Assembly (NCBI GenBank): GCA_034530615.2
Contig: JAVRCV020000046.1
Span: forward strand, 54,530-118,529
DNA from: Aulosira sp. ZfuVER01
Lineage (GTDB): Bacteria; Cyanobacteriota; Cyanobacteriia; Cyanobacteriales; Nostocaceae
Direction: 5' to 3'
Length of the DNA stretch: 64,000 bases
The notes beneath the pieces are model-generated. The model had not been told where the DNA came from, ran no database searches, and was given only the letters and a program-made list of their open reading frames with translations. Position numbers and translations under genes: made by a program. Positions within the stretch are counted from its first letter, which is position 1. Every line of letters begins with the position of its first letter. Below, piece by piece: positions 3,546 to 46,901 of this stretch.

Positions 3546-3845
3546 ATGTCACTTTACGTAGGCAACCTCTCATATGAAGTTACACAAGAGACTTTAAATA
3601 CTGTTTTTGCAAAATATGGTTCTGTAAAGCAAGTTTCGCTACCTACTGACCGTGAAACAGGTCGTTTGCGTGGCTTTGCTTTTGTAGAAATGGGTACAGA
3701 TTCAGAAGAAAATGCCGCCATTGAGGCTCTTGATGGTGCTGAATGGATGGGACGTAACTTGAAAGTGAACAAAGCTAGGCCTAGAGAAGATAGAGGTTCG
3801 TTTGGCGGGAACCGAAATAACTCCGGCTTTCGGAACCGTTACTAA
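3546..3845 (+). CDS. rbp: RRM RNA-binding protein (RbpA1-like, upstream of rpsU)
   Basis: RNP2 LYVGNL, RNP1 RGFAFVEM, short Gly/Asn/Arg-rich tail. Confidence 0.93.
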
Positions 3846-3879
3846 ATTTTGAACTCAGAAATTTAAACTCTAACGTCTT

Positions 3880-29497: not shown

Positions 29498-31129
29498 TTA
29501 TTGATGCATATTTGTTTGATAAACCTTAATTAAACGCTTAATGCCTTTGAAACTATAACTACCCATTTCTTGAAAATCTGAGGGTTGTTTGAGCATTTTA
29601 TAAGTAACTTCACTAATTACGCATTCACCTGGAGGACAAACTCCTTCCATGCGTGCAGCTAGGTTAATAGTAGCGCCTAAAGCCGTATATTCTACCCGTT
29701 GGGAGCTACCAACATCTCCGACAACTGCTTTACCGCTATTAATTGCAATGCGTAATTGTAGAGGTTCTTGCCAAAAACCATTCATATTCAGACGTTCTAG
29801 CCGAGTTAGCATCCCCTTAGCCGCCGCAATGGCGCGTTCGGCATGATCTGGTTGGGGTTCGGGAGCGCCAAAGAACGCCATGATACAATCACCAATATAT
29901 TTATCTAAAGTGCCGCCATAGGCAAACACTTCTTGCAGCATCTCTTCAAATAAATTATTGAGTAATTTGGCGATCGCGGTTGGTGTGACTCTTTCAGAAA
30001 TGGCAGTAAAACCAACTAAATCTGCAAATAATATACTAATTTCGCTTTCTTCGGGAGATAAACGTCCATCTGGTAGCCTACCCACAGATATTAACTGCTG
30101 AACTACTGCCGGAGAGTGATAACGTTCAAGTCTGTGACGAATTACTTCTTCGTTTTTGAGCCTATCTACTAATAACCAGCGTTGTACGCTAGTCGCTACA
30201 AGGTTAGCTAAAGCCGAAAAAAAGCTGAGTTCTTCTTCACCTTCGTTAGCCCAATGGTAAGAAGACAAATGTGCATCTGCGTAGAGAACGCCAACAACTT
30301 TATTTTCATCCCATAACGGCACCGCCATAACGCTGCGAATTCCCTTAACTAAAACGCTGTGTTCTCCAGAAAAGCGTTCATCTTTATGGGTATCAGCAGA
30401 CTGAACAACAACTTTTTCTTCAAATACTTTTTGGCAAATACTACGACTAATCCAACTGCCATCAGCTGCCAAATTTTGTTGGTGGGAAGCGTCTCTGGTT
30501 GCAGCATTCATCAATTCCAGATTACCACCGCCACTGACATCGACTAATAGCCCCAAGCGATCGATACTATCTAAGTAACGAAAAACTACTTCTTGTACTT
30601 GGGAAAAAATCTCTTCTATAGATGTAGCTGCACAGAGATTTTTGGCGATATCTACCAAGTCTTTGAGTCGGGCAATGGTAATATCCTTAGTGCTGATATC
30701 ACCATCTTTGCTATCAGCTTGTATCCATTGCTGTTGCAGTTGTTTGACGTTTCGGAGAATCGTTTTTTGCTCAGTATTATCCCCATCCCGCTCTTTAGTT
30801 GGTTGAGTCCTACTCATTGGCTGTGCAGCAGGATCTCCAACTAACACCAGTAAACTCACATTACCCAACCAAACAACGTCACCGTGATGCAGCTGCTGTG
30901 GACGGGTAATTAGACGTTCATTCACTTGCGTCCCATTTTTACTGCCCATATCCGCAATAGTCCATACCTCATCATCAGTCTTGACAATCTGGGCATGGTT
31001 ACGGGAGACTCCTCCAAAAGGTAGATATAAGTTACATTCTGGTAAACGGCCGATAGTGAATACATCTCGATCCACTGAAACCGTTTTTTCCGTATCTCCT
31101 TCTTGTAGACGTAGTTTGAGTTCAGTCAT
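29498..31129 (-). CDS. cyaD: FHA-GAF adenylate cyclase
   Basis: FHA (IGR, VSRNHA, SKNGT.VN), GAF, class III cyclase FADLVGFT / DKYIGDC / INLAARME. Confidence 0.85.
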   Translation of the reverse strand: MTELKLRLQEGDTEKTVSVDRDVFTIGRLPECNLYLPFGGVSRNHAQIVKTDDEVWTIADMGSKNGTQVNERLITRPQQLHHGDVVWLGNVSLLVLVGDPAAQPMSRTQPTKERDGDNTEQKTILRNVKQLQQQWIQADSKDGDISTKDITIARLKDLVDIAKNLCAATSIEEIFSQVQEVVFRYLDSIDRLGLLVDVSGGGNLELMNAATRDASHQQNLAADGSWISRSICQKVFEEKVVVQSADTHKDERFSGEHSVLVKGIRSVMAVPLWDENKVVGVLYADAHLSSYHWANEGEEELSFFSALANLVATSVQRWLLVDRLKNEEVIRHRLERYHSPAVVQQLISVGRLPDGRLSPEESEISILFADLVGFTAISERVTPTAIAKLLNNLFEEMLQEVFAYGGTLDKYIGDCIMAFFGAPEPQPDHAERAIAAAKGMLTRLERLNMNGFWQEPLQLRIAINSGKAVVGDVGSSQRVEYTALGATINLAARMEGVCPPGECVISEVTYKMLKQPSDFQEMGSYSFKGIKRLIKVYQTNMHQ

Positions 31130-31377: not shown

Positions 31378-32847
31378 ATGATCGGCAGATTACTAGACCA
31401 CCGTTACGAAGTGGTTGAACTATTAGGCAAAGGCGGATTTGGTCATACTTATATAGCCCTAGATACTCGCCGTCCTGGAAACCCCACTTGTGTCGTTAAA
31501 CATCTTAAACCTGTTACCAGCGACCCGGAATTTTTGCCATTAGCTAGACGCTTGTTTAATAGAGAAGCCGAAACTTTAGAAAAGCTGGGACATAATGACC
31601 AAATTCCCCGACTTTTAGCTTACTTTGAGGAAAACGAAGAATTTTATTTAGTACAGGAGTTGATCGAGGGACAACCACTAGCGTGGGAAATGCCACCGGG
31701 AAATAGATGGAGTGAAGAGCAGGTCATTAAACTACTGCAAGATGTCTTACCTATTCTAGAATTTATTCATGGTCATGGGGTGATTCATCGAGATCTCAAA
31801 CCCGACAATTTAATCCGCCGGGCTGCGGACAACACAATAGTCTTGGTTGATTTTGGGGCGGTCAAACAAATTAAGAGTTACTCACTGATGACTCCAGAAC
31901 AGCTGAAAAACGACACTGTTGCTGTTGGGACTCCAGGCTATATGCCTAGCGAACAGGGACAAGGTAGACCGCGTCCTTGTAGTGACATTTATGCACTAGG
32001 CATGACTTGTATCCAAGCTCTCACAGGCTTGAATCCCAAACAGTTAGGAGAGGATGCTGTCAGTGGAGAGATATTATGGCAGCATCATGCCCAAGTCAGC
32101 AACCAATTGGCATCAATCTTAAATAAGATGGTACGCCATTACTTCAAATACCGCTATCAGTCAGCAACCGAGGCATTGCAAGCACTCTCTTCCATCACTA
32201 ATGCCAGCACACCTGCTGCTGTCGCATCTGTCGTAACTCAGGTGGTAGGCCACTATTTAAAAGATGGCTATGTGACTGCAACCAAAGTTATGAACTATCT
32301 TCAGGAACTAGCAAAGCCTTGCTATATTCCGCCAGATAACGAAACTACTTCTGGTTCTACACCTCAACCCCTAACAGCGCCATCTACCCTACGGGCTTCT
32401 GAAGTACAGAATGCGCTGTCAACTACTGCTACTAATGCAACCCAAGCGCCTAGCCGTTCGCAGTTTAACTTGCGTTCTCTTCCTAAATCTTCTCCCAAAT
32501 CGCGACTGCTAATTGGGGGCAGTGCTGCGATCGCAGTCGTTGCTTTTGGTATCATGTCTGCTAATCACTCCCAAAAACCATCTTCTGAGCCTGGGCAAAA
32601 TGAAGTTAAAGCAGTAGCAAATAATACGAATGCGCCCGAACAGAAAAAAAGTTGTCTGGTAGTTACTAGTTCATCAAACTTGCGCTCTTTATCTGGCTCT
32701 GGACAAAGAAAAACAGGTAAAGTTGTCAAAGCCGGTACTCAAGTAACAACTACCGGCAAAACAGAAGGTGGTTGGATTGAAATTAGTTCTCCAGAGCCAG
32801 GTTGGATTTGGAAAAGTCGAACAAGAAATTCTTGCCCTGCTAAGTAA
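31378..32847 (+). CDS. Ser/Thr protein kinase (Pkn2-type) with TM segment and C-terminal SH3b-like domain
   Basis: LGKGGFG, VVK, HRDLKPDN, DFG, GTPGYM. Confidence 0.92.
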   Translation: MIGRLLDHRYEVVELLGKGGFGHTYIALDTRRPGNPTCVVKHLKPVTSDPEFLPLARRLFNREAETLEKLGHNDQIPRLLAYFEENEEFYLVQELIEGQPLAWEMPPGNRWSEEQVIKLLQDVLPILEFIHGHGVIHRDLKPDNLIRRAADNTIVLVDFGAVKQIKSYSLMTPEQLKNDTVAVGTPGYMPSEQGQGRPRPCSDIYALGMTCIQALTGLNPKQLGEDAVSGEILWQHHAQVSNQLASILNKMVRHYFKYRYQSATEALQALSSITNASTPAAVASVVTQVVGHYLKDGYVTATKVMNYLQELAKPCYIPPDNETTSGSTPQPLTAPSTLRASEVQNALSTTATNATQAPSRSQFNLRSLPKSSPKSRLLIGGSAAIAVVAFGIMSANHSQKPSSEPGQNEVKAVANNTNAPEQKKSCLVVTSSSNLRSLSGSGQRKTGKVVKAGTQVTTTGKTEGGWIEISSPEPGWIWKSRTRNSCPAK

Positions 32848-32848
32848 G

Positions 32849-33805
32849 TTAATTAGCAATTATTTTGTCAAATTCTTGTTTAATTTCATCAGCAAAGAAT
32901 TGTGGGCTTAAAATTTGCGCATTGGCACCATATTTCAAAATACGCTGGCGAAACCAAAACCAATAATCTACCGTTGCTGCAATGTCTCGGTATTTTCCTT
33001 CCGGGTCAATGTCAACGATCGCTTCATCTTGGCGTCGCGGTTGATAATTAGATAATGCGCCACTGGTACGATAGCGAATTTCTAATTTGGGAAAATCGCA
33101 GGATACCCAATGAGTATCTGATGCAGCACCAACGCTAGTAATTTTATCGAGGCGAAAGATATGGTTTTGGTCGATGTTTTGCCAATAGTCAAATCGCCAA
33201 GAACGCCAGTCGGGGATAAATGCAAATAGGTAGAGAACTCCATCGTGCAATCGCAATTCTGAACGGTCGATATCCCAGATGCGTCCTTCTGCTCCTGGTT
33301 TACTTTGATAGCGAATAGTATAGCGACATTGTTGCACAAAGCGTTCTTGGAGTTGGCTAACGATCGCACCCAAATTGCGAGCGCTATAATCAACAGGAGG
33401 ACTAAAATCGACTTTCACAAACGCGGGTATATCCAACTCTGTTAAATTACCGATGCGTTGAATTTGGCTAGCTTGCGCCGAAAAGCCCATGTCAGCTAAG
33501 AAATATGCCGCTATTGCTAGGGCTTCTCGCTGTTCGGTTGATAAAATAACAGGAAAATTTGACTCGATTAGTTCGTAGGGGCTATGAGTACTGCTGTTAA
33601 TTTCGATACCGCAGTCTCTAAGTTTGCGAATTGTACGGATAATTTTTTGTTTAATATCACCATCCGCCGATTTACCATGTTGTACTAAAAAAGCTGAAAG
33701 TAAATCTTCTAATTCTTGGCGTCGTCGTGGCTTTTCGGCTAGAAGTCTCAGGATTTCCAGAGCAAAAGCTATTTGGTTGTAATTGCCGTCACTTTTGGCG
33801 GGCAT
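32849..33805 (-). CDS. WYL-domain transcriptional regulator associated with type I-D CRISPR-Cas
   Basis: N-terminal wHTH, LYLFA...FRLDKI WYL core, ILKYGANAQILSP WCX-like end. Confidence 0.85.
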   Translation of the reverse strand: MPAKSDGNYNQIAFALEILRLLAEKPRRRQELEDLLSAFLVQHGKSADGDIKQKIIRTIRKLRDCGIEINSSTHSPYELIESNFPVILSTEQREALAIAAYFLADMGFSAQASQIQRIGNLTELDIPAFVKVDFSPPVDYSARNLGAIVSQLQERFVQQCRYTIRYQSKPGAEGRIWDIDRSELRLHDGVLYLFAFIPDWRSWRFDYWQNIDQNHIFRLDKITSVGAASDTHWVSCDFPKLEIRYRTSGALSNYQPRRQDEAIVDIDPEGKYRDIAATVDYWFWFRQRILKYGANAQILSPQFFADEIKQEFDKIIAN

Positions 33806-34049: not shown

Positions 34050-34241
34050 TTATTCAACTTGGGATTGTCTGATTTTTTCTCTAACCAGTTGCTCGAACTG
34101 ATCCATCGAAGTTATCTCAATCCCTGGTTCGCTTTGCAGCCTATCCATGTATGCATGGAATGCAGCTTGGTCTTGCGGATGTGTTCTCACATATTCCCTT
34201 AGCTGCTCTCTGCTCATGGTGGCAAAATTTATCTCAGTCAT
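34050..34241 (-). CDS. DUF6887-like small protein
   Basis: NFATMSREQLREYVRTHPQDQAAFHAYMDR; ATGA overlap with upstream gene. Confidence 0.7.
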   Translation of the reverse strand: MTEINFATMSREQLREYVRTHPQDQAAFHAYMDRLQSEPGIEITSMDQFEQLVREKIRQSQVE

Positions 34242-34423
34242 AAAAACCTCACTTTACCGTTTGGATAAATCAGTATTTCTGTCTCCTCCCCAGCTAAAAC
34301 ATAGATTTGATTTGTTCTCTCATCTAGCCTAACCACGTTAATTGGTTGAAGTACATTACTTAATCTGACGCAAACTAAGAAAAATTCAAAGGTTTGCTTG
34401 GAAGTTGGTATTTCTGGATACAT
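34238..34423 (-). CDS. DUF6888-like small protein
   Basis: LSN...PI..VRLDERT..IYVLAGEE.EI.I.PNG..RFL. Confidence 0.7.
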   Translation of the reverse strand: MYPEIPTSKQTFEFFLVCVRLSNVLQPINVVRLDERTNQIYVLAGEETEILIYPNGKVRFL

Positions 34424-34478
34424 AACTGCGGAATATTGACCTTGGAAAATAACCAGCTAAACCTATTTTTAGATTTGA

Positions 34479-34770
34479 GTTTTAATCCCATTACTGGGAA
34501 TTATTAATTTGAAAGTGCCTTGGCTTTGTGTTGCCCTTCGCGTCTTACCTCTGTTTCAATCCCGTTGCCAAGAGTCATTAATTTGAAATGACTAGAAAAA
34601 GCATGTTCGGATTACTTGCAGCAGCAAGTTTAAATCCCGCGAACGGGTTTCATTAATTTTAAAGTTTGCTCTCCTTGCTAAAAGTAAGGAGATTCAGAAT
34701 AGTGGGGAAAGGCCAGTTGATAAAATGGAGACTGTTTCAATCCCGCGTGCAGGTATTCATTACATTAAAA
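34479..34770 (-). CRISPR. Degenerate CRISPR mini-array (4 repeats, 3 spacers), opposite orientation to the main array
   Basis: Repeats at 34479-34515, 34553-34589, 34628-34664 (2 mismatches to the main repeat) and 34734-34770; spacers of 37, 38 and 69 nt. Confidence 0.85.
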
Positions 34771-34828
34771 TGCAACTGACCTCCCTTATAAGAGCATATC
34801 ACAAGGTCATTGCTTCAGTTAATTTTTG

Positions 34829-34881
34829 GTAAGTCTATATTTAATCAAATATTTGACTTTCTTGGGTGTAGGTGGTAAAAA
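34829..34881 (+). promoter_or_regulatory. GTA-PAM self-target site of the mini-array spacer, adjoining a sigma70-like promoter (TTGACT-17-TAAAAA with TGn extension)
   Basis: AGTCTATATTTAATCAAAT versus spacer AGTCTCCATTTTATCAACT; -35 at 34853-34858, -10 at 34876-34881. Confidence 0.6.
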
Positions 34882-35021
34882 ATTAATTAGGATTAAAAAT
34901 CTAAGCAAAAGCCCCCGCTGGAACTGGCATTCCAACGGAGGAAACTTAAGATTTTTATTTTTAGAGGCAAAGATGTGTGTTTGCCCTAAGTTTTTCGTAC
35001 CTTAAAAAAGGAACTCATTAA

Positions 35022-35222
35022 ATGTACTGTAATTTTACCACTGTTTCAGAAACTTTGCATCTCAATATTGAGCAAAGTTACAATTTATTGCTGGAACATT
35101 CAACACCAACAGGAAGCATTAACCAAATCCAAGTATCTGCTTGGAGACAAGTTTCTGTAACTGCTTGCAGAGTGTATAAAGAGGAAAAGAATTGTACTCC
35201 CTCTGTGTTGCACGAAAGCTAA
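35022..35222 (+). CDS. Small hypothetical ORF (66 aa) upstream of cas3
   Basis: AAGGA RBS-like sequence before ATG; no recognised motif. Confidence 0.35.
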   Translation: MYCNFTTVSETLHLNIEQSYNLLLEHSTPTGSINQIQVSAWRQVSVTACRVYKEEKNCTPSVLHES

Positions 35223-35421
35223 ATTTTTACTCCTTCAAAAAGAAGTTTGCGGAAAATGCCATTAATCTAAATAAAAATGCTAGTTCTGGGATTGCAAAAT
35301 TTCAGTAGTCTAAAAACTAGCACAAAGTAGCGTTTTCCTCATTTTTCCCTTGTCGGAGTACCATAATATGCCAGCAATTAGATTTCAATTGCTGGCTCAC
35401 TCTGTATTGAACAATTTAAGC

Positions 35422-35467
35422 AATTTGATATCAACAGCTTCAAAAAAATATAGATTGATATCAAATT
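35422..35467. promoter_or_regulatory. Perfect 13-bp inverted repeat upstream of cas3, candidate operator
   Basis: AATTTGATATCAA-N20-TTGATATCAAATT. Confidence 0.55.
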
Positions 35468-35528
35468 TTGACTACAACATTCCCAAAACTAGTCTTAAAC
35501 TGGGTGCAAATAACAAAAAGTAAGTCAG

Positions 35529-37664
35529 GTGAAACTTTTTTTACAACCTCTTTACTCTCAACTCAACCCAGGAGTTGAGAACTGTCTCCTTGAGTGTAAC
35601 TCTGAATGCCTTGTTACACAAAGGGCTAGTGACCTTAAACCACCCGATGGATGTATCTGTCCTCTCTCATCACACCAAGCGCAAAACTATAAGGAAATTA
35701 TACACGGTGATGCAGATATTATCTGTAATCAAGCGGCAACTGGTGATGGTAAAACCCTGGGTGCAAATTTACCGACGCTGATTAATCCTGATTTTCGCAT
35801 TATGGGGTTATATCCCACAATTGAACTCGTGGAAGACCAAGCCGAACAGCAATATAAATATCATGCGCTGTTTGGGTTGGATGCTGCTCAACGAGTAGAC
35901 CGTTTATTTGGTGCGGAATTAAGCAGAAGGGTAAAGCAAGCAAATAAAAGTAATAAATTTCAAGAATTACTACTAGCGATTCAACAAAAGCCAATTTTGC
36001 TGACTAACCCCGATATTTTCCATTACATGACTCACTTTCAATACCGCGACCCGGCTTATGGTAGCGATCAACTACCATTAGTATTGGCAGAATGGCCTGA
36101 TTTGTGGGTATTTGATGAATTTCATATTTTTGGTAGTCATCAAGAAACAGCAGCTTTAAATAGTTTGGCTTTTATTCGTCGCAGCCAAGAAAATCAATCC
36201 CGTCCCCGGCGGTTTTTGTTTACTTCCGCAACGCCAAAAGAAGATTTTATTCAACAGTTACGCACAGCCGGGTTTAAGGTGGCTGAGGTTAAGGGAGTTT
36301 ATGCAAGTGAAGCAAAGCCAGGATTTCGCCAAATTCTGCAAGCTGTGGAATTAGAGTTAGTGGAATTAGCCAAAGATGGAGACACGCAGACATGGTTAAG
36401 GGAAATGATTCCCACCATTCAGCAAATTCTGAATGCAGAGTCTAAAGCCAGGGGATTGATAATTGTTAATTCCGTGGCGAAAGCTGGTCAGGTGACTCGG
36501 TTGTTAGATGCTTTATTACCAGGAGTGAAAGTTCGAGAAATTAGCGGACGCATCGACAGACAACAAAGATTGCAGGTACAAAGCGACTTAAAAGATGCAC
36601 AACAGCCAGTATTAGTAGTGGGGACATCTGCGGTTGATGTGGGTGTGGACTTTAAAATTCACCTGTTGATTTTTGAAAGTAGCGACTCTGCAACAGTAAC
36701 GCAGCGTTTGGGAAGATTGGGGAGACATCCGGGTTTTAATGTGTACACAGCATTTATTTTAATTCCCGGTCATACTCCTTGGGTGATGGCGAGACTGCAA
36801 GAAAAACTCAGTCCACAACAGAAAGTGACAAGAGAGATTTTAACAGATGCGATCGCCTACGCCTTTGACCTACCCAAAAAGTTTGAAGAATATCGCCAGC
36901 ATTGGGGTGCATTACAAGCACAGGGAATGTTTTGGCGAATGACGCAAGAGAATAAAAAAGTTAGTGAATTAGTGCGCGCAAACATAACAAAAGATTTGCA
37001 GCGCCTATATTCTAAAAGCATTGAATCAAAACAGGCTTACTGGTATAAAAAGCAGAAAACTGAGGTCGAAAAAGCCACCCAACAAGAACTGTTACGCTTT
37101 CGCGGAGGTTCAACCTTACAAGCGGCGGTTTGGGACGAGAATAATTTTTACACTTACGACTTGCTGCGACTTTTACCTTATGCGCGAGTAGAAATAATCG
37201 ACCGTGAGACATTTTTAAAAGCAGCTAATAAATCAGCAAGAGGTGAAGAAGAATTTCCCGATGATTTCATTAATGTTTATCTTCGCATTCAGTCATGGGT
37301 TGACCAGCGAATTGAGCATTTGAGTTTACACACCAACCGTCAAAGCAGCGAAATCCAAATTGGCGAACTTTGTCTAATCGATAAATTAACCCTCATTGGA
37401 CATCCTCAAGCTGATGTCATTAATTGTTTGCGACAAAAGAAACTCCTAACTTTTCTCGTCCCAGTCAACAAAAACAAACAAAGTAGCCATTGGGAAGTTA
37501 GCCGTACCCTTAACCTCAGTCCTTTATTTGGTTTATATCGCTTAGTTGACGCTAGCGAACAAGCTTACGCCTGTGCATTCAATCAAGATGCATTACTTCT
37601 CGAAGCTTTAAAGTGGCGCTTAAAAAAATTCACCAACACCCGCTTTGAATCTTCCATATTTTAA
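35529..37664 (+). CDS. cas3: Type I-D Cas3' helicase (no HD domain)
   Basis: ATGDGKT, DEFH, TSAT, GTSAVDVGVD, QRLGRLGR. Confidence 0.93.
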   Translation: MKLFLQPLYSQLNPGVENCLLECNSECLVTQRASDLKPPDGCICPLSSHQAQNYKEIIHGDADIICNQAATGDGKTLGANLPTLINPDFRIMGLYPTIELVEDQAEQQYKYHALFGLDAAQRVDRLFGAELSRRVKQANKSNKFQELLLAIQQKPILLTNPDIFHYMTHFQYRDPAYGSDQLPLVLAEWPDLWVFDEFHIFGSHQETAALNSLAFIRRSQENQSRPRRFLFTSATPKEDFIQQLRTAGFKVAEVKGVYASEAKPGFRQILQAVELELVELAKDGDTQTWLREMIPTIQQILNAESKARGLIIVNSVAKAGQVTRLLDALLPGVKVREISGRIDRQQRLQVQSDLKDAQQPVLVVGTSAVDVGVDFKIHLLIFESSDSATVTQRLGRLGRHPGFNVYTAFILIPGHTPWVMARLQEKLSPQQKVTREILTDAIAYAFDLPKKFEEYRQHWGALQAQGMFWRMTQENKKVSELVRANITKDLQRLYSKSIESKQAYWYKKQKTEVEKATQQELLRFRGGSTLQAAVWDENNFYTYDLLRLLPYARVEIIDRETFLKAANKSARGEEEFPDDFINVYLRIQSWVDQRIEHLSLHTNRQSSEIQIGELCLIDKLTLIGHPQADVINCLRQKKLLTFLVPVNKNKQSSHWEVSRTLNLSPLFGLYRLVDASEQAYACAFNQDALLLEALKWRLKKFTNTRFESSIF

Positions 37665-37767
37665 AACTTACAGCTTGAACATTAACCCTTACAGCTTGAA
37701 TTTTGAATACTTCGACTTCGCTCAGTACAAGTTTTGAATTTTGAATTTTGAATTTTGAATTGTTAAT

Positions 37768-40713
37768 ATGTCTACCCTCATCCAAACACTCCTCATCGAA
37801 ACCCTCCCACAAGACACAGACCCAATTCTGCATTCCTATATCGAGAAATTACTCCCATCTCTCGAACAAGAATTTTCCTCAATTTCCGCATTAGGCGGTA
37901 GTTACGACGCACATTATCAAATTTTATCTCAGCTAGGCGATCGCTATGCTCAAAAAAATGCCCAAAACTGGTCAAACCGTGCTGACCAAAATTTACTAGT
38001 TCACGTTCTCAATGGCTTACTCACAGCTTGGAACATCAGCAAATATTTACCTCAACCTTTATCAGATATCGAAAAATATCTCCTTTGTTTAGGCTTAACT
38101 TTGCACGATTACAACAAATATTGCAACGGACAAGGAGAAGAAACACCCAAAAATTCGCAAGTTGAAGAAATTATCAATCTCTGTCGTAACTTAGGCGAAA
38201 AACTCAACTTTCAATTATTTTGGACAGAATGGCAAGCGTATTTACCAGAAATTGCTTACTTAGCACAAAATACTCAAAACAAAGCTGGCACAAATCTTTA
38301 CCCTGCTAACTGGCCTGTTCCTAAAATTAAAGACCGTCACCGTTTAGAAATTCCCCTACGTCGTCTGCTAGCTTTTGGCGATATTGCAGTACATTTTACC
38401 GACCCAGGTGATATAGATACTCAAACCAGAGGAGATAGACTGCGAGAACAACTGCGGTATTTAAATATTAACAAAAGTTTGGTTTATCATCGCTTGCGAG
38501 ACACCATAGGTATTGTGAGTAATGGTATTCATAACGCCACAATTAAATATGCCAAAGACCTAAATTGGGAACCCATTTTATTTTTTGCTCAAGGTGTAAT
38601 TTATCTCGCACCATCAAATACTGAAACTCCAGATATTTACGAACTCCAAGAATTTATTTGGCAACAAATCAGCGGAGTTTTGGCAAGTAAAATGATGGGT
38701 GGTGATATTGGTTTTAAGCGAGATGGTAAAGGCTTAAAAGTTGCACCCCAAACCATAGAATTATTTTCGCCAGAGGAACTGATTCCCAAACTACCACGAG
38801 TAATTGAAGTCAAAGTAGCAAATATCAAAGACCCAGCTACACCCAAACGTTTAGAAAAATTAGATTTAACTGCAACTGAGCGAGAATTTCTCAATCAAGG
38901 TGCAGATATTCGTGCTGATAGAATTGCCGAATTTATTTTTCTGACTCAAAAAGAGTTTTTTGGTGATTCCCCAGCATACATCAACTGGATGCTAAATAAA
39001 TTAGGAGTGCAAGATAACATATCTCCCGAACAAACCCAAATCCAAGCGGGAGGTGTGAATTATGGCTGGTATCATACAGCAGCTTATTATGTTGCTAATC
39101 ATGCATCTTCTAAGCCAGAAGATATTTCAGAATCGATGGAAAAATGGGCGGAAGATTTAGCAAGTTGGGCAAGTGCAAATAACTTACTCCCCTCACATTC
39201 TAGCCCTATCCATGAGATTTTCTCTCAATACTTAACCCAATATTTAGAAGTTAAAGGCTGGTCTAGTAATCAACCATCATTTAGTGCGGAATTTACAGCT
39301 TATGCTGATGCAAAAACCAAAGCCGCAAAACAACCAATTTGTTCCTTAAGTTCCGGTGAATTTGCATCAGAAGACCAAATGGATTCAGTGGTTTTATTTA
39401 AACCGCAACAATATAGTAACAAAAATGCCCTTGGCGGCAGACAAATTAAACGCGGTATTTCCAAAATCTATGCCCTAGAAATGTTAATGCGTCAAGCTTT
39501 TTGGGCAGTCCCAGCCGGAAAATTAGAAGAACAACAACCAGTATTTTTATATATCTTTCCAGCTTATGTCTATTCTCCTCAAACTGCGGCGGCTATCAAA
39601 TTGTTAGTCAACAATATGAAACAGATTAATCTCTGGGATGTCCGCAAGCAATGGTTAGAGAAGGAGATGAAAATTCAGGCTTTACAATCAGTTGCTTGGT
39701 TAACTGAAGAAGCAACATCAGGACGCTTTCACAACGATAAATACAATACAGAAGACTTGCCCTTTATGGCAATGAATTACACAACCACCAGAGGTAAAAC
39801 CCTCACCGATGCGTGGGTACAACCTGCTTTTTTGGCTTTATCTCTGCCAATATTACTAGGAGTAAAAGTAATAGCTACCAGTAGTTCTGTCCCCCTGTAT
39901 AACAGCGATAGTGACTTTAAAGAGTCTGTAATTCTGGATGCACCCGCATCATTTTGGAATTTACTCGGATTATCCAATTCTCTGCGAATTCAGGATTTTG
40001 AAAATGCCATACAGCGCCTTTTATTTGCCTACAGTCTGCATTTAGATACTCGCAGTTCTCCCCCTGATGCTAAATGGCGAGATTTGATTAAAACAGTGCG
40101 AGAAGTAACAACAAATGTCCTCAATATTTTTGCTTTAGCAGAAGAAGGATTGCGACGTGATAAACGTATACCCAGCCAAGAAGAAGTCAAACGTTATTGG
40201 CTATATGCCCAATTATGGGTAGATGATAAAAATGAAATTAACGAGGGAGGAAAGTATTTAATGAATTTCATAGAAGAAATAGCTCAAAAATACCGCAAAT
40301 TTTATCGTGTTGGAGAAGATGATTTAGGTAATGTTTACTCTAATGAATCAAGTCATTCTATTCTACGTCCAATTAGCATTGCCTTAGACGTTATGCTCAG
40401 TAGTCCTGTTAATACGGATAAAGATACTTTAATTAAGATTGGTTGTGGACAAATTAGAGATGCTTTAGAACGGCTCAAAGGGAAAGAAATTTCAAGACGT
40501 ATTTTACGAAATAACAAATCCCAAGAGCTATATGTAATTCAAGAATTTATGGAATTCTGTGTCGAAGAAATTTTGGGAAATGAACAAAATAAGCAAGGTT
40601 ACTGTAAAGGCGATCGCGCTTTATTACAAGAAAACCGCAACCGCATCAAATCCGGTGCAGAATTTGCTTATCGGTGGTTAGCTTTGCAAGAAAAAGCTGC
40701 TAAATCATCCTAA
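37768..40713 (+). CDS. cas10d: Type I-D large subunit Cas10d/Csc3 with N-terminal HD nuclease
   Basis: DQNLLVHVLNG and LHDYNK motifs; position between cas3 and csc2. Confidence 0.93.
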   Translation: MSTLIQTLLIETLPQDTDPILHSYIEKLLPSLEQEFSSISALGGSYDAHYQILSQLGDRYAQKNAQNWSNRADQNLLVHVLNGLLTAWNISKYLPQPLSDIEKYLLCLGLTLHDYNKYCNGQGEETPKNSQVEEIINLCRNLGEKLNFQLFWTEWQAYLPEIAYLAQNTQNKAGTNLYPANWPVPKIKDRHRLEIPLRRLLAFGDIAVHFTDPGDIDTQTRGDRLREQLRYLNINKSLVYHRLRDTIGIVSNGIHNATIKYAKDLNWEPILFFAQGVIYLAPSNTETPDIYELQEFIWQQISGVLASKMMGGDIGFKRDGKGLKVAPQTIELFSPEELIPKLPRVIEVKVANIKDPATPKRLEKLDLTATEREFLNQGADIRADRIAEFIFLTQKEFFGDSPAYINWMLNKLGVQDNISPEQTQIQAGGVNYGWYHTAAYYVANHASSKPEDISESMEKWAEDLASWASANNLLPSHSSPIHEIFSQYLTQYLEVKGWSSNQPSFSAEFTAYADAKTKAAKQPICSLSSGEFASEDQMDSVVLFKPQQYSNKNALGGRQIKRGISKIYALEMLMRQAFWAVPAGKLEEQQPVFLYIFPAYVYSPQTAAAIKLLVNNMKQINLWDVRKQWLEKEMKIQALQSVAWLTEEATSGRFHNDKYNTEDLPFMAMNYTTTRGKTLTDAWVQPAFLALSLPILLGVKVIATSSSVPLYNSDSDFKESVILDAPASFWNLLGLSNSLRIQDFENAIQRLLFAYSLHLDTRSSPPDAKWRDLIKTVREVTTNVLNIFALAEEGLRRDKRIPSQEEVKRYWLYAQLWVDDKNEINEGGKYLMNFIEEIAQKYRKFYRVGEDDLGNVYSNESSHSILRPISIALDVMLSSPVNTDKDTLIKIGCGQIRDALERLKGKEISRRILRNNKSQELYVIQEFMEFCVEEILGNEQNKQGYCKGDRALLQENRNRIKSGAEFAYRWLALQEKAAKSS
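40261..40713 (+). CDS. cas11d: Cas11d small subunit from an internal in-frame start in cas10d (150 aa)
   Basis: GGAGG at 40246-40250 followed by an in-frame ATG at 40261; known feature of type I-D. Confidence 0.75.
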   Translation: MNFIEEIAQKYRKFYRVGEDDLGNVYSNESSHSILRPISIALDVMLSSPVNTDKDTLIKIGCGQIRDALERLKGKEISRRILRNNKSQELYVIQEFMEFCVEEILGNEQNKQGYCKGDRALLQENRNRIKSGAEFAYRWLALQEKAAKSS

Positions 40714-40763
40714 TTTTTTATCTTTGATTATCGCCGTAATCTCAAATTATCAGGAACCAAACC

Positions 40764-41768
40764 ATGAGCATTCTCAAAACATTAAAACCCGAATTTCAAT
40801 CTGTATTTCCCCGCTTGGCTTCTGGGAAGTATATCCACTTCATTATGCTACGTCATAGTCAATCATTCCCCGTATTCCAAACAGATGGAATTCTCAACAC
40901 TGCACGTACACAAGCCGGGTTAGGAACTACAGATGAAAGCAAAAAACAAATTAGTCGTTTGGTGATGTTCAAGCGCAAACAAACCACCCCCGAACGACTT
41001 GCGGGACGCGAATTACTGCGGGGGTTAAATCTGACTAGCGCCGATGAAGCAAACAAAGATAAACACTGCGAATATAACGGCGAGAAATCTTGCAAAAAAT
41101 GCCCCGATTGTATTATCTATGGATTTGCGATCGGTGATAGTGGTTCGGAACGTTCTAAAGTCTATTCTGACTCAGCTTTTTCTCTTAGCGCTTATGAAAA
41201 ATCCCATCGCAGTTTCACATTTAATGCACCCTTTGAAGGTGGAACAATGAGCGAAGCTGGAGAAATGCGTAGTAGTATTAACGAATTAGATCATGTTATT
41301 CCCGAAGTCACATTCCCCACAATAGAAACCCTGCGCGATCCTACTTATGAAGGCTTTATTTACGTTCTAGGCAATTTACTGCGTACCAAACGTTATGGCG
41401 CACAGGAATCACGCACAGGAACAATGCGAAATTACATCGCCGGAATTGTATTTGGCGATGGTGAAATCTTTAGTAATTTACATTTCACGCAAGCGCTTTA
41501 TGATGCTTTAAAAGGTGATGTAAATGCTCCAGTTAGCGATATTTTACAGCAGGTAGAATCAGTGGCTAATAATTTACTCAACGATGAACCTATACGCAAA
41601 ACTAAGCTGATTTTTGGTTCACAGTTAAATGATTTGTTAGAGGAAGTTAACGCACTTTATCAAGATGAAGTAAGTTTAGTAGAAACAATGTCTGCACTCT
41701 ACGGACAAACTAAAGCCTATGCAGAATCTTTTGGAGCGTTGAAAAAGAAAGGGAAGAGTAATTCGTAA
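40764..41768 (+). CDS. cas7: Type I-D Cas7/Csc2
   Basis: FKRKQTTPERLAGRE, CxxCPDCIIYGFA, RYGAQESRTG. Confidence 0.93.
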   Translation: MSILKTLKPEFQSVFPRLASGKYIHFIMLRHSQSFPVFQTDGILNTARTQAGLGTTDESKKQISRLVMFKRKQTTPERLAGRELLRGLNLTSADEANKDKHCEYNGEKSCKKCPDCIIYGFAIGDSGSERSKVYSDSAFSLSAYEKSHRSFTFNAPFEGGTMSEAGEMRSSINELDHVIPEVTFPTIETLRDPTYEGFIYVLGNLLRTKRYGAQESRTGTMRNYIAGIVFGDGEIFSNLHFTQALYDALKGDVNAPVSDILQQVESVANNLLNDEPIRKTKLIFGSQLNDLLEEVNALYQDEVSLVETMSALYGQTKAYAESFGALKKKGKSNS

Positions 41769-41782
41769 TTATCTTTTCTATT

Positions 41783-41886
41783 GTAGGGTGCGTTATCGCT
41801 TTAGCGTAACGCACCACCAACCAATTAATTTTTCTCTGCACCATCAACAATTAAGGTGCGTTAGCCTGCGGCATAACACACCCTAC
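41783..41886. repeat. REP/REPIN-like element between cas7 and cas5
   Basis: GTAGGGTGCGTTA...TAACGCACC ... GGTGCGTTA...TAACACACCCTAC, two hairpins with inverted outer ends. Confidence 0.65.
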
Positions 41887-41911
41887 GAAAATTAAAAATG
41901 GCGTGCTTTTT

Positions 41912-42703
41912 ATGGCATTATATCACTGCACATTGACGCTACACGATAACGTTTTCTTCGCTACAAGAGAAATGGGTATTCTCTATGAAACTGAAAAATA
42001 TTTACATAATTGGGGATTAAGTTTTGCACTTTTTGCAATTCATTACATTCCCCAACCATATAGATTACAAGGAGAATTAGCACAAAAACCCACATATTTA
42101 GATGCACGTGCTGAACAAAATCTTCTTCATCTCAATCAAGCAGGAATTTATGTATTTCCCGCCCAACCTATTAATTGGTCGTATCAAATTAATACTTTTA
42201 AAGCTGCTCAAGTTGCATATTATGGCAAGTCAAAGCAGTTTGGTGATAAGGGTGCAGATAAAAACTATCCAATTAATTACGGGAGGGCGAAAGAATTAGC
42301 TGTTGGTAGTTTATATCGTACTTATATTATTGCTCCAGAAAATCTCAAAATACCCCGTTGGATACGTTTGGGTAAATGGGCAGCAAAAATTAGGGTTGAA
42401 GCGGTCAAAATTCCCGATCGCATCATGCAAACTAAATCCGGAGATTACATCTGTTTGCATCCTTTAAACCCGTTGGATTTGCCAAGGGATACTCAATTGC
42501 TACTTTATAACCGGATTGTTATGCCTCCAGTAAGTTTGGTCAGTCAGGCACAGTTACACGGTGAGCATTTAGTAACTAAAAAAGATGAGTGGCAAGATTT
42601 TAAATTAACATTAACACCAGAGCAATATCAACAGTTACCAGCAGAAATTTCTCTACCAAAGGTGGCATTTTATGGAGCCGGAAATGTTGTTGCAACCGCT
42701 TAA
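41912..42703 (+). CDS. cas5: Type I-D Cas5/Csc1
   Basis: FFATREMG..YETE.YLHNW, NYGRAKELA, PRWIRLGKW. Confidence 0.92.
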   Translation: MALYHCTLTLHDNVFFATREMGILYETEKYLHNWGLSFALFAIHYIPQPYRLQGELAQKPTYLDARAEQNLLHLNQAGIYVFPAQPINWSYQINTFKAAQVAYYGKSKQFGDKGADKNYPINYGRAKELAVGSLYRTYIIAPENLKIPRWIRLGKWAAKIRVEAVKIPDRIMQTKSGDYICLHPLNPLDLPRDTQLLLYNRIVMPPVSLVSQAQLHGEHLVTKKDEWQDFKLTLTPEQYQQLPAEISLPKVAFYGAGNVVATA

Positions 42704-43562
42704 ACCATCAACATTACATTCAATTGTTGTTGAAGTTGCGGCTGCGGAGATGGGAGATATGCCTTTTACTTTATCTCGTGCATTACACGCGCTGGTAATT
42801 AAGTGGCTAGCCGCCGCAAATCCAGCATTGGCTGAAGCTGTTCACAACAGTCAAAATTCCCCATTGACTATTTCGGGACTGTTGGGAAATCGTCGTCAGG
42901 GTGGGGTGCGTGTTGGGGATTATTTTTATTTTCGGATTGGTTTATTGGATGGTAGTTTAATTGAGCCATTAATGCAGGGATTTGAAAAATCCGAAACTGA
43001 ATCTTTAGTATTAGCTGATTTTCCGTTTGTTTTACGGAATATGTATGCGCTACCAGGAACGCATCAACTAGCAGGTGCGGCTGACTATGCTTTATTATTT
43101 AATCCAGCACAGGTTTTACATGAGATTGAATTAAACTTTCTCTCTCCTACTAGCTTCAAACAAAATCAAAATGTGCAAACCTTTCCTTTACCCGAATTAG
43201 TGTTTAATTCGCTGCATCGACGGTGGAATATTTTTGCACCAGAACAATACCAAATTCCTAATTGTGAATGGAATGCTTTAGTTACAGCCTACGAACTCAA
43301 AACCTACGCACTCAAAATGGAAGGAGGTTCGGAAATTGGGGCGCAGGGTTGGGTACGCTATCGATTCAATAGTCCAGAAATGGCTCGAATTGCAACTATC
43401 CTAGCTAATTTTGCTTTCTTTGCTGGGGTAGGGCGTAAAACTGCAATGGGAATGGGACAAACACAGGTGGGGAATTCAAAATTCAAAATTCAAAATTCAA
43501 AAGCTCAAAATTTGCGAAAAAGTCGTAACCAAAATTTTGAAACTCAGCCGTTTCACATTTAA
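42684..43562 (+). CDS. cas6: CRISPR endoribonuclease Cas6
   Basis: FLSPTSFKQ, GVGRKTAMGMG Gly-rich loop; 3' end extended by AATTCAA heptamer repeats. Confidence 0.93.
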   Translation: MLLQPLKPSTLHSIVVEVAAAEMGDMPFTLSRALHALVIKWLAAANPALAEAVHNSQNSPLTISGLLGNRRQGGVRVGDYFYFRIGLLDGSLIEPLMQGFEKSETESLVLADFPFVLRNMYALPGTHQLAGAADYALLFNPAQVLHEIELNFLSPTSFKQNQNVQTFPLPELVFNSLHRRWNIFAPEQYQIPNCEWNALVTAYELKTYALKMEGGSEIGAQGWVRYRFNSPEMARIATILANFAFFAGVGRKTAMGMGQTQVGNSKFKIQNSKAQNLRKSRNQNFETQPFHI

Positions 43563-43763
43563 TATCATGTCCAGTTGAACACTTGTCATTGCGACCGCAG
43601 GGAAGCCACTTCGTGTCTACGTTTCACTACCCTGCGGGAAGGCGCCTTTCAGGCGTCTACGTTGCACTCGCGGCGGACATATCGCAACTACACATTTAAC
43701 TTGCATAATTTGGGCGGGCAAAATGCCTACCCCACAAGATTTATAGAGATTTTAGATATGCAC

Positions 43764-44348
43764 ATGAATGAACAGTTCTATCTTCCCTTAGCTTATTTGA
43801 ATGCTTGGGAATATTGCCCACGTCGTTTTTTTCTGGAATACGAACTGGGGGAAAATGCGGATAACGAACACATTATTATTGGTCGTCACCTGCATCGCAA
43901 TGTTGATGATGAAGGCAAGAATATTGAAGGAGACAAGGTAGTTTACCGACATCAGTGGGTGTGGTGCGATCGCCTCCTCATCAACGGTATTATTGACGCA
44001 GTAGAAGAAAAAGACAGCCAGCTTATCCCTTTAGAGTTTAAAAAGGGACGCATGGCTAACCACAAAAGCGACCATTTTCAACTCTGCGGTGCAGCTTTGT
44101 GTTTGGAAGAACGCACTGGTAGCACCATTCCCTACGGAGAAATTTTTTACTACGCCAACCGCCGCCGCGAACAGGTACATTTTACACCTGCATTGCGACA
44201 AGCTACAGAACAGGCAATTCAAGCGGCGCGGGCTGCAATCGGTGGAACAATGCCAGCACCAATTGACAATCCCAAAAAGTGTCGGGATTGCAGCTTGCAG
44301 AAAATTTGCTTACCCAAAGAAATCAAAAAATTACATCTTGAGGTCTAA
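43764..44348 (+). CDS. cas4: CRISPR-associated Cas4
   Basis: YCPRR, GIIDAVE, EFKKG, Q...AALCLEE, CRDCSLQKIC. Confidence 0.93.
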   Translation: MNEQFYLPLAYLNAWEYCPRRFFLEYELGENADNEHIIIGRHLHRNVDDEGKNIEGDKVVYRHQWVWCDRLLINGIIDAVEEKDSQLIPLEFKKGRMANHKSDHFQLCGAALCLEERTGSTIPYGEIFYYANRRREQVHFTPALRQATEQAIQAARAAIGGTMPAPIDNPKKCRDCSLQKICLPKEIKKLHLEV

Positions 44349-44351
44349 AAA

Positions 44352-45329
44352 ATGTCTGTTCTTTATGTAACTCAGCCTGATGCTATTCTCAGTAAAGCTG
44401 CGGAAGCTTTTAAAGTCGCGTTAAAACAAGAAGATGGCAATTGGGAGAAAAAATCGGTTCCCGCCCAAACTGTCGAACAAGTGGTATTAATGGGCAATCC
44501 CCAAATTACTGGTGATGCGCTTGTATATGCATTAGAACTAGGAATGCCAGTACATTACCTTTCTGGTTTTGGTAAATATTTAGGTTCGGCGCTTCCTGCG
44601 TACTCCCGTAATGGTCAGTTGCGGCTGGCACAGTATGCTGCTTACTGTGACCAAGCCCATCGCTTGCAGATTGCCAAAACAATTGTGACGGGCAAAATCC
44701 ACAATCAATATACTGTTTTATACCGCCACGATCAAAAAGACAATCCGCTCAAATCCCGCAAACAGCTAGTCGCAGAACAAACAACCCTCGATGAAGTCCG
44801 GGGGGTAGAAGGATTAGCAGCACGAGAATATTTTGCGGCTTGGTCGGCAATGCTGGAAGCACAATGGTCTTTTAATGGCAGAAATCGCCGTCCTCCCACG
44901 GATGCAGTAAATGCATTGTTGGGATTTGCCTATGGACTTTTGCAAGTACAGGTGACAGCAGCCGTACATCTGGCAGGTTTAGATCCTTACGTTGGCTATT
45001 TGCACGAAGCCACCAGAGGACAACCTGCAATAGTTCTCGATTTAATGGAAGAATTTCGCCCGTTGATTGCCGATAATTTGATACTTTCGGTTATCAGCCA
45101 CAAAGAAATTAAACCCGATGATTTTACGGATCATCTTGGTGCATATAGACTTTCGGAAGCCGGACGCAAACAATTTTTGCAAGCGTGGGAACGCAAAATG
45201 AACGATGAGTTTAAGCATCCTACTTTTGGCTATCGTTGCAGCTATCGTCGGGCAATTGAATTGCAAGCACGTTTATTGAGTCGGCATTTACAAGAAGGGG
45301 TTCCCTATAAAGCGCTGGCACTAAGATGA
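44352..45329 (+). CDS. cas1: CRISPR-associated Cas1
   Basis: RGVEG.AAR.YF, RNRRPPTD.VNALL, GYLH, DLMEEFRP. Confidence 0.96.
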   Translation: MSVLYVTQPDAILSKAAEAFKVALKQEDGNWEKKSVPAQTVEQVVLMGNPQITGDALVYALELGMPVHYLSGFGKYLGSALPAYSRNGQLRLAQYAAYCDQAHRLQIAKTIVTGKIHNQYTVLYRHDQKDNPLKSRKQLVAEQTTLDEVRGVEGLAAREYFAAWSAMLEAQWSFNGRNRRPPTDAVNALLGFAYGLLQVQVTAAVHLAGLDPYVGYLHEATRGQPAIVLDLMEEFRPLIADNLILSVISHKEIKPDDFTDHLGAYRLSEAGRKQFLQAWERKMNDEFKHPTFGYRCSYRRAIELQARLLSRHLQEGVPYKALALR

Positions 45330-45619
45330 GTACTTTGTTTTACCTGGTAATTTACGATTTGCCGGATAGTAAAGCAGCAAATAAACGGCGCACAAAACTA
45401 CATAAAATGCTTTCCGGTTATGGAACTTGGACGCAGTACAGCGTGTTTGAATGTTTTTTGACTGCCGTGCAGTTTGCTAAATTAAGGGTACAAGTTGAAA
45501 ACTTAATCAAACCCGCCGAAGATTCAGTCCGTATCTATGTTTTGGATGCTGGAGCAGTACGTAAAACTATTACCTACGGTTCTGAACAACCTCGACAGCA
45601 AGAGACTATCATATTATGA
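45326..45619 (+). CDS. cas2: CRISPR-associated Cas2
   Basis: YLVIYDL, QYSVFEC, DSVRIY. Confidence 0.95.
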   Translation: MSTLFYLVIYDLPDSKAANKRRTKLHKMLSGYGTWTQYSVFECFLTAVQFAKLRVQVENLIKPAEDSVRIYVLDAGAVRKTITYGSEQPRQQETIIL

Positions 45620-45822: not shown

Positions 45823-46901
45823 CTTTCAAATTAATGAAACCCGTTCGCGGGATTGAAACTGTTCAGCCATTCGGGTACTCATTACCCAGTACTGTATTTG
45901 TGCTTTCAAATTAATGAAACCCGTTCGCGGGATTGAAACGTTTTCGTTAGATCGTGTAAACTCACTATAATGTGCTTTCAAATTAATGAAACCCGTTCGC
46001 GGGATTGAAACTAATTAATTTCCTGTTAGTTATCAGGATGTTTAAAATCTTTCAAATTAATGAAACCCGTTCGCGGGATTGAAACTTCATTTGAATGCTG
46101 CATCACAAAGATGGTTAGGCGCTTTCAAATTAATGAAACCCGTTCGCGGGATTGAAACCAAAAATCTTAATAGATAACGCGGAAATTTTAGAACTTTCAA
46201 ATTAATGAAACCCGTTCGCGGGATTGAAACTACAAATTTGACATTTCATACATTCCTTAGACATTGCCTTTCAAATTAATGAAACCCGTTCGCGGGATTG
46301 AAACCAACAGCCACTACTGCATTAGGGACGGCTGAAACAGCCTTTCAAATTAATGAAACCCGTTCGCGGGATTGAAACCATTATTCCATTTGATTCTAGT
46401 GGTGCGTCACTGGCTTTCAAATTAATGAAACCCGTTCGCGGGATTGAAACTACGGCACATAGTCCAGCAAGGGCACAGTGGACACTCCTGTCTTTCAAAT
46501 TAATGAAACCCGTTCGCGGGATTGAAACCTTTACTATGCCTACATTTCAGACATTTACGCATAAAACTTTCAAATTAATGAAACCCGTTCGCGGGATTGA
46601 AACAACCAATTTGTCCGCGCGGACCGGGTATACCTTGCGGCTTTCAAATTAATGAAACCCGTTCGCGGGATTGAAACGAGCCATTCTACTTTTCCACCAA
46701 ATGCACATAGAGGACTTTCAAATTAATGAAACCCGTTCGCGGGATTGAAACCTTTCACCTCTCTGGCGGCTATCCGCGCTAACTCTAAACTTTCAAATTA
46801 ATGAAACCCGTTCGCGGGATTGAAACAGCTTGCTCTATCAACACAATGATATTAGCATTCCCGTCTTTCAAATTAATGAAACCCGTTCGCGGGATTGAAA
46901 C
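45823..46901 (+). CRISPR. Main CRISPR array: 15 identical 37-bp repeats, 14 spacers of 35-43 nt
   Basis: Repeat CTTTCAAATTAATGAAACCCGTTCGCGGGATTGAAAC with CCCG-TTCG-CGGG stem. Confidence 0.99.

Follow-up and report, generated by a model that had tools for sequence, protein, structure and literature searches.

Guides derived from CRISPR can turn the effector complex Cascade into a repressor, as has been shown experimentally in types I-B, I-E, I-F and V-A. In the type I-B CreTA system of Haloarcula hispanica, CreT, an RNA, carries a start codon as well as rare arginine codons (PMC12737573), and in CrePA of the Acinetobacter type I-F system the CreA guide directs Cascade to the promoter of a protein gene inside the cas locus, the protein, CreP, having a KilA-N domain and blocking cell division (10.1101/2024.01.05.574328; PMC12737573). 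Whether CrePA-like systems also occur in further types of CRISPR, and with different cellular targets, is a question posed in a 2025 review (PMC12737573). For type I-D, the literature available on CreTA and CRISPR RNA (crRNA)-like elements contained computational predictions and no experimental study. Liu et al. 2023 (10.1101/2023.03.10.532045) are said to list creA-like elements for I-D in their Figure S7, and Shmakov et al. 2023 (PMC10120712) predicted mini-arrays computationally in 15% of 128 I-D loci, with predicted targets at the cas10d promoter and at cargo-gene promoters, and with one clade carrying its cargo upstream of the locus. Mini-arrays are not mentioned in a 2023 review of I-D biology, and the terms Nostoc, Tolypothrix, Calothrix and CAS-I-D are absent from two text supplements of Shmakov et al., the locus lists (Supplementary file 6) not being covered by this check. 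Here we analyse a 64,000-nt stretch of the genome of Aulosira sp. ZfuVER01 (GenBank assembly GCA_034530615.2, contig JAVRCV020000046.1, positions 54,530 to 118,529; hereafter the window), in which a degenerate CRISPR repeat, R1, and the pseudo-spacer behind it lie divergently upstream of a complete type I-D operon. We consider it likely that the two constitute a crRNA-like guide of the CreA/CreR type with which Cascade would repress the promoter ahead of a small open reading frame, ORF66 (Table 1).

The initial annotation, made from the letters of the sequence, had described a minus-strand repeat (34770-34734) that keeps the stem CCTG-CACG-CGGG and the exact 5' handle, followed by a spacer with partial identity to a nearby GTA-flanked site between two promoter-like elements. 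All of this held, including the positions given for the promoter hexamers. R1 is identical to the main-array consensus at 25 of 37 positions, its stem CCTG/CGGG includes one G-U pair, and it sits 758 nt upstream of cas3'. The bases directly after it on the minus strand are AGTCTCCATTTTATCAACT, and the plus strand at 34832-34850 reads AGTCTATATTTAATCAAAT, with GTA immediately before. Guide and target agree at 15 of 19 positions, with mismatches at positions 6, 7, 12 and 18 and no match at positions 20-23. In Cascade-type complexes every sixth base is unpaired, and when the non-sixth positions are scored this target, 98 nt away, is the best non-self guide match in the locus (15 of 18). The preceding GTA also agrees with the annotation's proposal of a type I-D protospacer-adjacent motif (PAM), which is 5'-GTN-3' on the non-target strand (PMC9123187).

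The match between guide and target is not due to chance. Sites with at least 15 of 19 matches number 35 among the 16,055,300 genome positions (both strands, spacer and target counted), from which about 0.003 such sites would be expected by chance in the 758-bp intergenic region. If 15 non-sixth positions only are scored, a single genome site besides the spacer itself reaches 14 of 15, and since that site carries a GT PAM it must be the local target.

We then compared the locus with its relatives. Among 79 loci found in a Cas3' search, four share the stretch from about 34705 to 35528: those of Nostoc paludosum (L023), a Nostocaceae metagenome-assembled genome (L025), Tolypothrix carrinoi (L046) and Amazonocrinis nigriterrae (L032). 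An ORF66 search of 389 family genomes found the gene in six, the window's included, and added L104, and these six loci form the comparison set. In all six the guide adjoins ORF66. The module appears to be sparsely distributed: a search of 401 genomes of the order for ORF66 returned only the window's own copy and one weak partial match, a metagenome scan with an ORF66 alignment returned only the contig already known as L046, the 60 nearest genomes by DNA have no match to 34734-35440, and the plasmid and phage collections hold no further homologous locus. Mean pairwise identity over the six loci is 0.95 for the 3' 20 nt of R1, 0.91 for the 22-nt pseudo-spacer, 0.85 for ORF66 and about 0.5 for the flanks. 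Such conservation across genera is not expected of a true spacer. The pseudo-spacer measures exactly 22 nt in L023 and L025, bounded there by R1 and a second repeat in good condition; decay of the second repeat is seen in L046, L032, L104 and the window.

What the six loci show directly is the pairing of guide with target, the PAM beside it, a 5+1 periodicity, conservation and covariation. In each, the best non-self guide match lies on the plus strand 98-140 nt from the handle, behind GTA or GTG, and the GTN-flanked partial target is positioned between two divergent promoter-like elements. The best targets score 15, 15, 18, 17, 16 and 17 of the 18 non-sixth positions, and positions 6, 12 and 18 match in only one of 18 cases; in L025 there is a 21-nt pairing with mismatches at 6, 12 and 18 only. 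Position 10 is mismatched in L046, L032 and L023. All nine targets read in the six loci have a GTN PAM (GTA, GTG or GTT), and pairing ends at position 21 or earlier in every locus, which fits binding without interference. Spacer/target covariation, which the initial annotation had suggested looking for in homologous loci, is present. Positions 1-5 read AGTCT in the window's guide and in its target, against ACTGT in the guides and targets of L025 and L046 and in the L032 guide and its first target; the window's seed changes at positions 2 and 4 are mirrored in its target. Position 21 is A in the L023 guide and target and G in the others. Some changes are uncompensated and are considered below.

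Several loci have more than one target. L025 (3265-3320), L032 (3048-3100) and L104 (~1290-1345) contain two tandem targets about 27-30 bp apart, of which the promoter-proximal one is usually the better match and the second, weaker one stands behind GTT or GTG. The window and L046 retain the proximal copy only, and L023 the distal copy only.

As a control, we took 50 Cas3' loci with a divergent repeat no more than 2.5 kb upstream of cas3 and compared the spacer nearest the repeat with the intergenic region of its own locus, admitting only sites with a GT PAM. Real arrays, represented by the 22 loci with at least eight repeat matches, score 7-11 of 18, and the four family members score 15-18. 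When guides were scored against non-cognate regions, 12 of 2,319 values were 14 or higher and the other 2,307 were 13 or lower; the 12 equal in number the ordered pairs among the four family members. Four further loci with one or two repeats and quite different guides (L089, L095, L072 and L082) score 15, 15, 14 and 13 respectively.

These four cyanobacterial I-D loci have divergent one- or two-repeat units near a GTN-flanked site, and several of their guides share a GTATCT core. Inspection by eye of L095 (~1170-1230) and L082 (~3300-3370) finds positions 6, 12 and 18 mismatched there also, and in both loci two inverted targets are followed by a different small open reading frame (88 and 113 amino acids; the two are related to each other and belong to no Pfam family).

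The arrangement of these elements suggests how the guide may act, with transcription, processing by Cas6, non-cleaving binding and repression as the proposed steps. The guide would be transcribed leftward from an extended -10 promoter near 34795, the TGnTATnnT motif of which aligns in 5/5 loci of alignment A2 about 25 nt upstream of R1. The type I-D operon would provide the effector as well as Cas6, which would cut the transcript to leave the handle AUUGAAAC, and the guide would then enter the locus's own type I-D Cascade; the hairpin region behind the pseudo-spacer is a possible 3' end of the guide RNA. Binding to the GTA-flanked site at 34832-34852 would extend over some 19-21 nt with every sixth base unpaired, and because this pairing is presumably too short for a full R-loop, Cascade would stay on the DNA without cleavage. 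The rightward -35 box begins immediately after target position 21 and is conserved in the six loci (TTGACT or TTGCTT, identity 0.82), as is GTGGTAAAAA (0.90), with a spacing of 17-18 nt. A Cascade extending from the PAM across the -35 box at 34853-34858 would therefore be expected to block the rightward promoter, which is predicted to drive a structured leader and ORF66 just upstream of cas3, and the output would be repressed only while crRNA-free Cascade is available.

Several observations weigh against this proposal. The six loci are related, so their agreement does not amount to six independent observations, and the covariation is imperfect: at position 4 the L104 guide carries C where its targets have G or A, and the L023 target deviates at positions 3 and 4. 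The window pair is among the family's weakest: position 7, next to the seed, is mismatched, and pairing at positions 20-21 is lost through a 4-nt deletion. The homologue of the region at 34665..34711 is a decayed psi-R2 in L046, L032 and L104 and an intact R2 in L023 and L025, and the decay of this second repeat in the window leaves the 3' end of the guide RNA undefined. A generic promoter scan lists neither promoter, both being below its 9-of-12 rule and TAAAAA lacking the final T. Lastly, with a terminator-like hairpin between the promoter and ORF66, the gene may be poorly expressed from it.

Table 1. Coordinates of the proposed guide, its target, ORF66 and associated features in the window
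Feature	Position	Strand	Details
Degenerate repeat R1 (psi-repeat)	34734..34770	-	Weakened Cas6 hairpin CCTG-CACG-CGGG and exact 8-nt 5' handle ATTGAAAC
Pseudo-spacer (guide) AGTCTCCATTTTATCAACTGGC	34712..34733	-	Pairs with target at positions 1-5, 8-11, 13-17 and 19
Decayed second repeat (CTTTCCCC...) and small hairpin CTCCTT-N9-AAGGAG	34665..34711	-	Hairpin seen in RNA fold
Three more degenerate repeats with two spacers	34479..34664	-	R2 34664-34628, R3 34589-34553, R4 34515-34479
Leftward promoter-like element for guide	34793..34822	-	TTAACT (34822-34817), 18 nt, TGATATGCT (34801-34793); predicted
GTA PAM (34829-34831) and 21-nt target AGTCTATATTTAATCAAATAT	34829..34852	+	
Rightward promoter-like element	34853..34881	+	TTGACT (34853-34858), 17 nt, TGGTAAAAA (34873-34881); predicted
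Structured leader	34888..35021	+	About 130 nt; long stem around GGAGG hairpin (34912-34941), terminator-like hairpin (34966-34985), Shine-Dalgarno AAGGA
ORF66, probable conserved orphan small protein	35022..35222	+	66 codons; first gene behind targeted promoter; 306 nt upstream of cas3
Conserved 10-bp hairpin GCCAGCAATT-N7-AATTGCTGGC	35370..35396	+	Without U-tract
Putative cas3-proximal control region	35425..35473	+	Two TTGATATCAA palindromes (35425-35434, 35455-35464) and TTGACT (35468-35473)
Complete type I-D operon	35529..45619	+	NCBIfam
cas3'	35529-37664	+	NCBIfam
cas10d	37768-40713	+	NCBIfam
csc2/cas7d	40764-41768	+	NCBIfam
csc1/cas5d	41903-42703	+	NCBIfam
cas6	42672-43562	+	NCBIfam
cas4	43575-44348	+	NCBIfam
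cas1	44352-45329	+	NCBIfam
cas2	45326-45619	+	NCBIfam
Main CRISPR array, 15 repeats	45823-46901		Consensus CTTTCAAATTAATGAAACCCGTTCGCGGGATTGAAAC; after cas2
CRISPR-associated WYL-type regulator gene	32849..33805	-	PADLOC WYL E 4e-15

The initial annotation had named the cas operon or a toxin as the object of regulation. What stands directly behind the targeted promoter is the structured leader and ORF66, not cas3, and the toxin part is only a guess. We nonetheless considered CreR-type autoregulation, in which the target promoter is a main cas promoter and reads through ORF66 into cas3-cas10d, such that the guide throttles Cascade synthesis and ORF66 is a passenger or a co-regulated helper; this explanation is compatible with guide-directed repression ahead of ORF66, and we regard it as possible yet rather doubtful. 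ORF66 and cas3 are co-directional and 306 nt apart, and a terminator scan lists no plus-strand terminator-like site between them, so read-through from the targeted promoter into cas3 is possible. CreR elements at cas promoters are experimentally established for I-B, I-E and V-A, with creA-like elements listed for I-D, in the available text of 10.1101/2023.03.10.532045, and the cas10d promoter is among the I-D targets that Shmakov et al. 2023 predict. Against it, 676 nt separate the target from the cas3 start downstream; in addition, module-free relatives retain just the ~90 bp ahead of cas3 (35440-35528, the sole stretch of the intergenic region that they share), suggesting that cas3 probably has its own proximal promoter. 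The path from the targeted promoter to cas3 also contains the terminator-like hairpin already upstream of ORF66 and the conserved 10-bp hairpin downstream of it, which in five loci keeps its stems while its loops vary, and in L032 an additional ~230-bp insertion.

Other features of the region between ORF66 and cas3 are the two TTGATATCAA palindromes, which are perfect, 30 bp apart and kept in five loci, and which could be an operator for the WYL regulator at a cas3-proximal promoter. The L032 insertion (~3620-3850) is hairpin-rich, resembles a miniature inverted-repeat transposable element, lies between ORF66 and the conserved hairpin, and is confined to Amazonocrinis.

It is less probable, and in our view unlikely, that the locus is of the CreTA type, in which the toxin would be the structured leader RNA of about 105 nt (~34888-34995) ending at the terminator-like hairpin, and ORF66 would lie outside the circuit. 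Points in favour are the leader's pair of conserved hairpins, its GGAGG motif and its terminator-like end; it is also divergent from the guide with the target in between, as described for creT-creA in the available text of PMC12737573. Its predicted fold pairs 88.8% of cells across five sequences, compared with 25.6-60.5% with slid partners. Covariation in the leader, however, is not significant (three double changes, a number equalled in 140 of 500 shuffles), and inspection of the six sequences by eye finds no conserved start codon or rare-codon mini-ORF after GGAGG, which is itself buried in a stem. Moreover, ORF66, with its own Shine-Dalgarno sequence, follows within 35 nt and is always present. 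A search of Rfam with 34200-35700 gave nothing relevant, the sole match being a chance microRNA (E 0.74).

The initial annotation had also referred to the repeat and spacer as a mini-array. The repeat-spacer unit stands, and R1 proves to be the first of four degenerate minus-strand repeats, starting at 34770, 34664, 34589 and 34515 and matching the consensus at 25, 35, 28 and 28 of 37 positions, so that the supposed mini-array is the head of a decayed divergent array. The three repeats at 34479..34664 appear to be the remnant of a divergent upstream array, and relatives such as G014 and G031 have full arrays at the same place and in the same orientation. The closest relative, G009, shares R4-S3-R3 at 96% identity, and there (L002; G009:C27, 1600-1800, against window 34553-37000) an extra repeat is fused to mid-cas3 at about residue 470; judging by this junction, a single deletion took out R1 along with the guide, ORF66 and the 5' half of the cas3 gene. 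A candidate copy of the main-array leader upstream of R1 was rejected, with a local alignment score of 28 against 25.6 +/- 4.9 for shuffles. That R1-R4 are mere array leftovers, with the 15/19 match a coincidence or the relic of an old self-acquired spacer that is functionless now, is already disfavoured and to our mind very improbable: the degeneracy of all four repeats, the full arrays of relatives at this place, the loss of R1, guide, ORF66 and half of cas3 from the closest relative and the weakened pairing of the window at positions 7, 20 and 21 would all fit, but the guide and R1 are the region's most conserved parts across genera, guide and target co-vary, among 16 million positions the match is unique, and the first spacers of real arrays have no comparable match.

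If, as we favour, the guide directs repression of the promoter ahead of ORF66, the nature of this gene becomes of interest. ORF66 is open in 6/6 loci at 64-66 codons with a conserved ATG. Among 5.8 billion proteins it has eight homologues, all of 64-66 amino acids and unnamed, and a profile search of 1.84 billion proteins adds three diverged homologues of 61-67 amino acids and two repeat proteins that match through strand-like repeats. No significant Pfam, PHROG or PADLOC family was found for it, KilA-N included. Variable sites at codon positions 1, 2 and 3 number 18, 18 and 28, and in 14 of 15 pairs non-synonymous differences exceed synonymous ones, the two being equal in number in the remaining pair, which counts against a coding cargo. 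Given this non-synonymous excess together with a modest third-position enrichment, the coding status of ORF66 is probable, not certain, and we conclude that it probably encodes a protein.

AlphaFold with 14 sequences predicts one long beta-hairpin (residues 2-27 and 33-59) with a predicted local distance difference test (pLDDT) score of 85.7, the five models spanning 83-86, and with nine sequences it also gives a long beta-hairpin, 2/5 models being below pLDDT 55. A helix-turn-helix, which had been read by eye, was dropped since both AlphaFold runs give the long hairpin. Foldseek of the model against the PDB yields no match at E <= 0.001, and the rows at its top, which are weak (E 0.018-0.16), come from the stem hairpins of pore-forming proteins and from parts of phage tails, indicating no more than that a long hairpin was modelled. 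For the same protein the ESM Atlas has a poor model (pLDDT 0.49), with uninformative structural neighbours. Judged from its sequence, the hairpin has a mostly hydrophobic face and a polar one. Such an amphipathic lone hairpin, if the model is correct, would have to oligomerise or bind a partner, which says nothing of function. The gene also contains an internal direct repeat at 35133-35171, GTATCTGCTTGGAGA and GTAACTGCTTGCAGA (VSAWR, VTACR), located on the second predicted strand.

By analogy with CrePA, our leading guess, offered tentatively and at well short of even chances, is that ORF66 is a growth-arresting 'guard' protein. Somewhat more speculative still is the fuller version of this idea, that ORF66 would be a new CRISPR-repressed guard, an oligomerising amphipathic beta-hairpin of ~66 residues that is possibly membrane-active or otherwise growth-arresting and silent only while the I-D Cascade and the guide are intact.

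The source genome is 8.0 Mb in size with 41% G+C and belongs to the family Nostocaceae. The cas10d gene of the I-D operon is its sole copy genome-wide. Four orphan arrays ending in GGGATTGAAAC are located distant from cas10d (C3 14824-15942, C4 6594-7116, C28 51303-51681 and C52 106109-106631), on four other contigs. They share the same handle, and crRNAs made from them would compete with the guide for the one I-D effector. The window's WYL regulator shares 71% identity with that of L046. The WYL gene of L046 and of L032 begins downstream of the guide, within about 70-90 nt and on its strand, so the guide may share a transcript with the regulator; in the window, three decayed repeats and a DUF6888/DUF6887 pair separate the two. 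DUF6888 (34423-34238) and DUF6887 (34241-34050) are overlapping small genes on the minus strand, which is the guide's strand, and the pair looks like a two-gene cassette, to which no function is assigned. Just beyond the WYL regulator, an FHA-domain protein is encoded on the minus strand (29498-31129) and a Ser/Thr protein kinase on the plus strand (31378-32847).

The type of device proposed here is already known. What the present sequences add is a case that comparison with relatives makes unusually well supported, with a cargo that is uncharacterised. The relatives' mismatches at exactly positions 6, 12 and 18, together with the co-evolution of the seed, constitute in-genome evidence that I-D Cascade reads DNA in 5+1 steps, and the short pairing is in-genome evidence that it tolerates this without cleavage, making the locus a clean natural test case for guide repression in type I-D. 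The module bears directly on the question raised in the 2025 review as to CrePA-like systems elsewhere, and points to an uncharacterised small protein under CRISPR control. Should the guard proposal be true, both type I-D and the cyanobacteria would have their first CrePA-like module, serving addiction or anti-anti-CRISPR, and its toxin would have no relation to KilA-N.

Among described systems, so far as the available texts go, the closest in subtype are the I-D mini-arrays of Shmakov et al., which likewise lie near cas3 with a partial PAM-flanked target at the promoter of a small non-cas gene, and which likewise occur patchily among relatives; their cargo consists of toxin-antitoxin genes and regulators, whereas here it is an orphan 66-amino-acid reading frame without a family. 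The window's locus resembles the CreR elements of I-B, I-E and V-A in having a degenerate mini-CRISPR beside cas and a PAM-flanked partial target at an upstream promoter (10.1101/2023.03.10.532045), but the CreR target adjoins the promoter of an effector gene, and here a leader, a reading frame and 306 nt precede cas3. As in CreTA, a degenerate repeat-spacer unit is divergent from a small structured transcript with the target between them and next to the promoter, and the pairing is partial and predicted to be non-cleaving; unlike CreT, the leader has no conserved mini-ORF of a start and rare codons, and a real small ORF follows it. The likeness to CrePA is that the conserved, probably protein-coding ORF66 stands directly behind the targeted promoter, so that loss or inhibition of Cascade would derepress it. 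ORF66 differs from CreP in having no KilA-N domain, in its subtype (I-D rather than I-F) and in the phylum of its host, and its toxicity is hypothetical.

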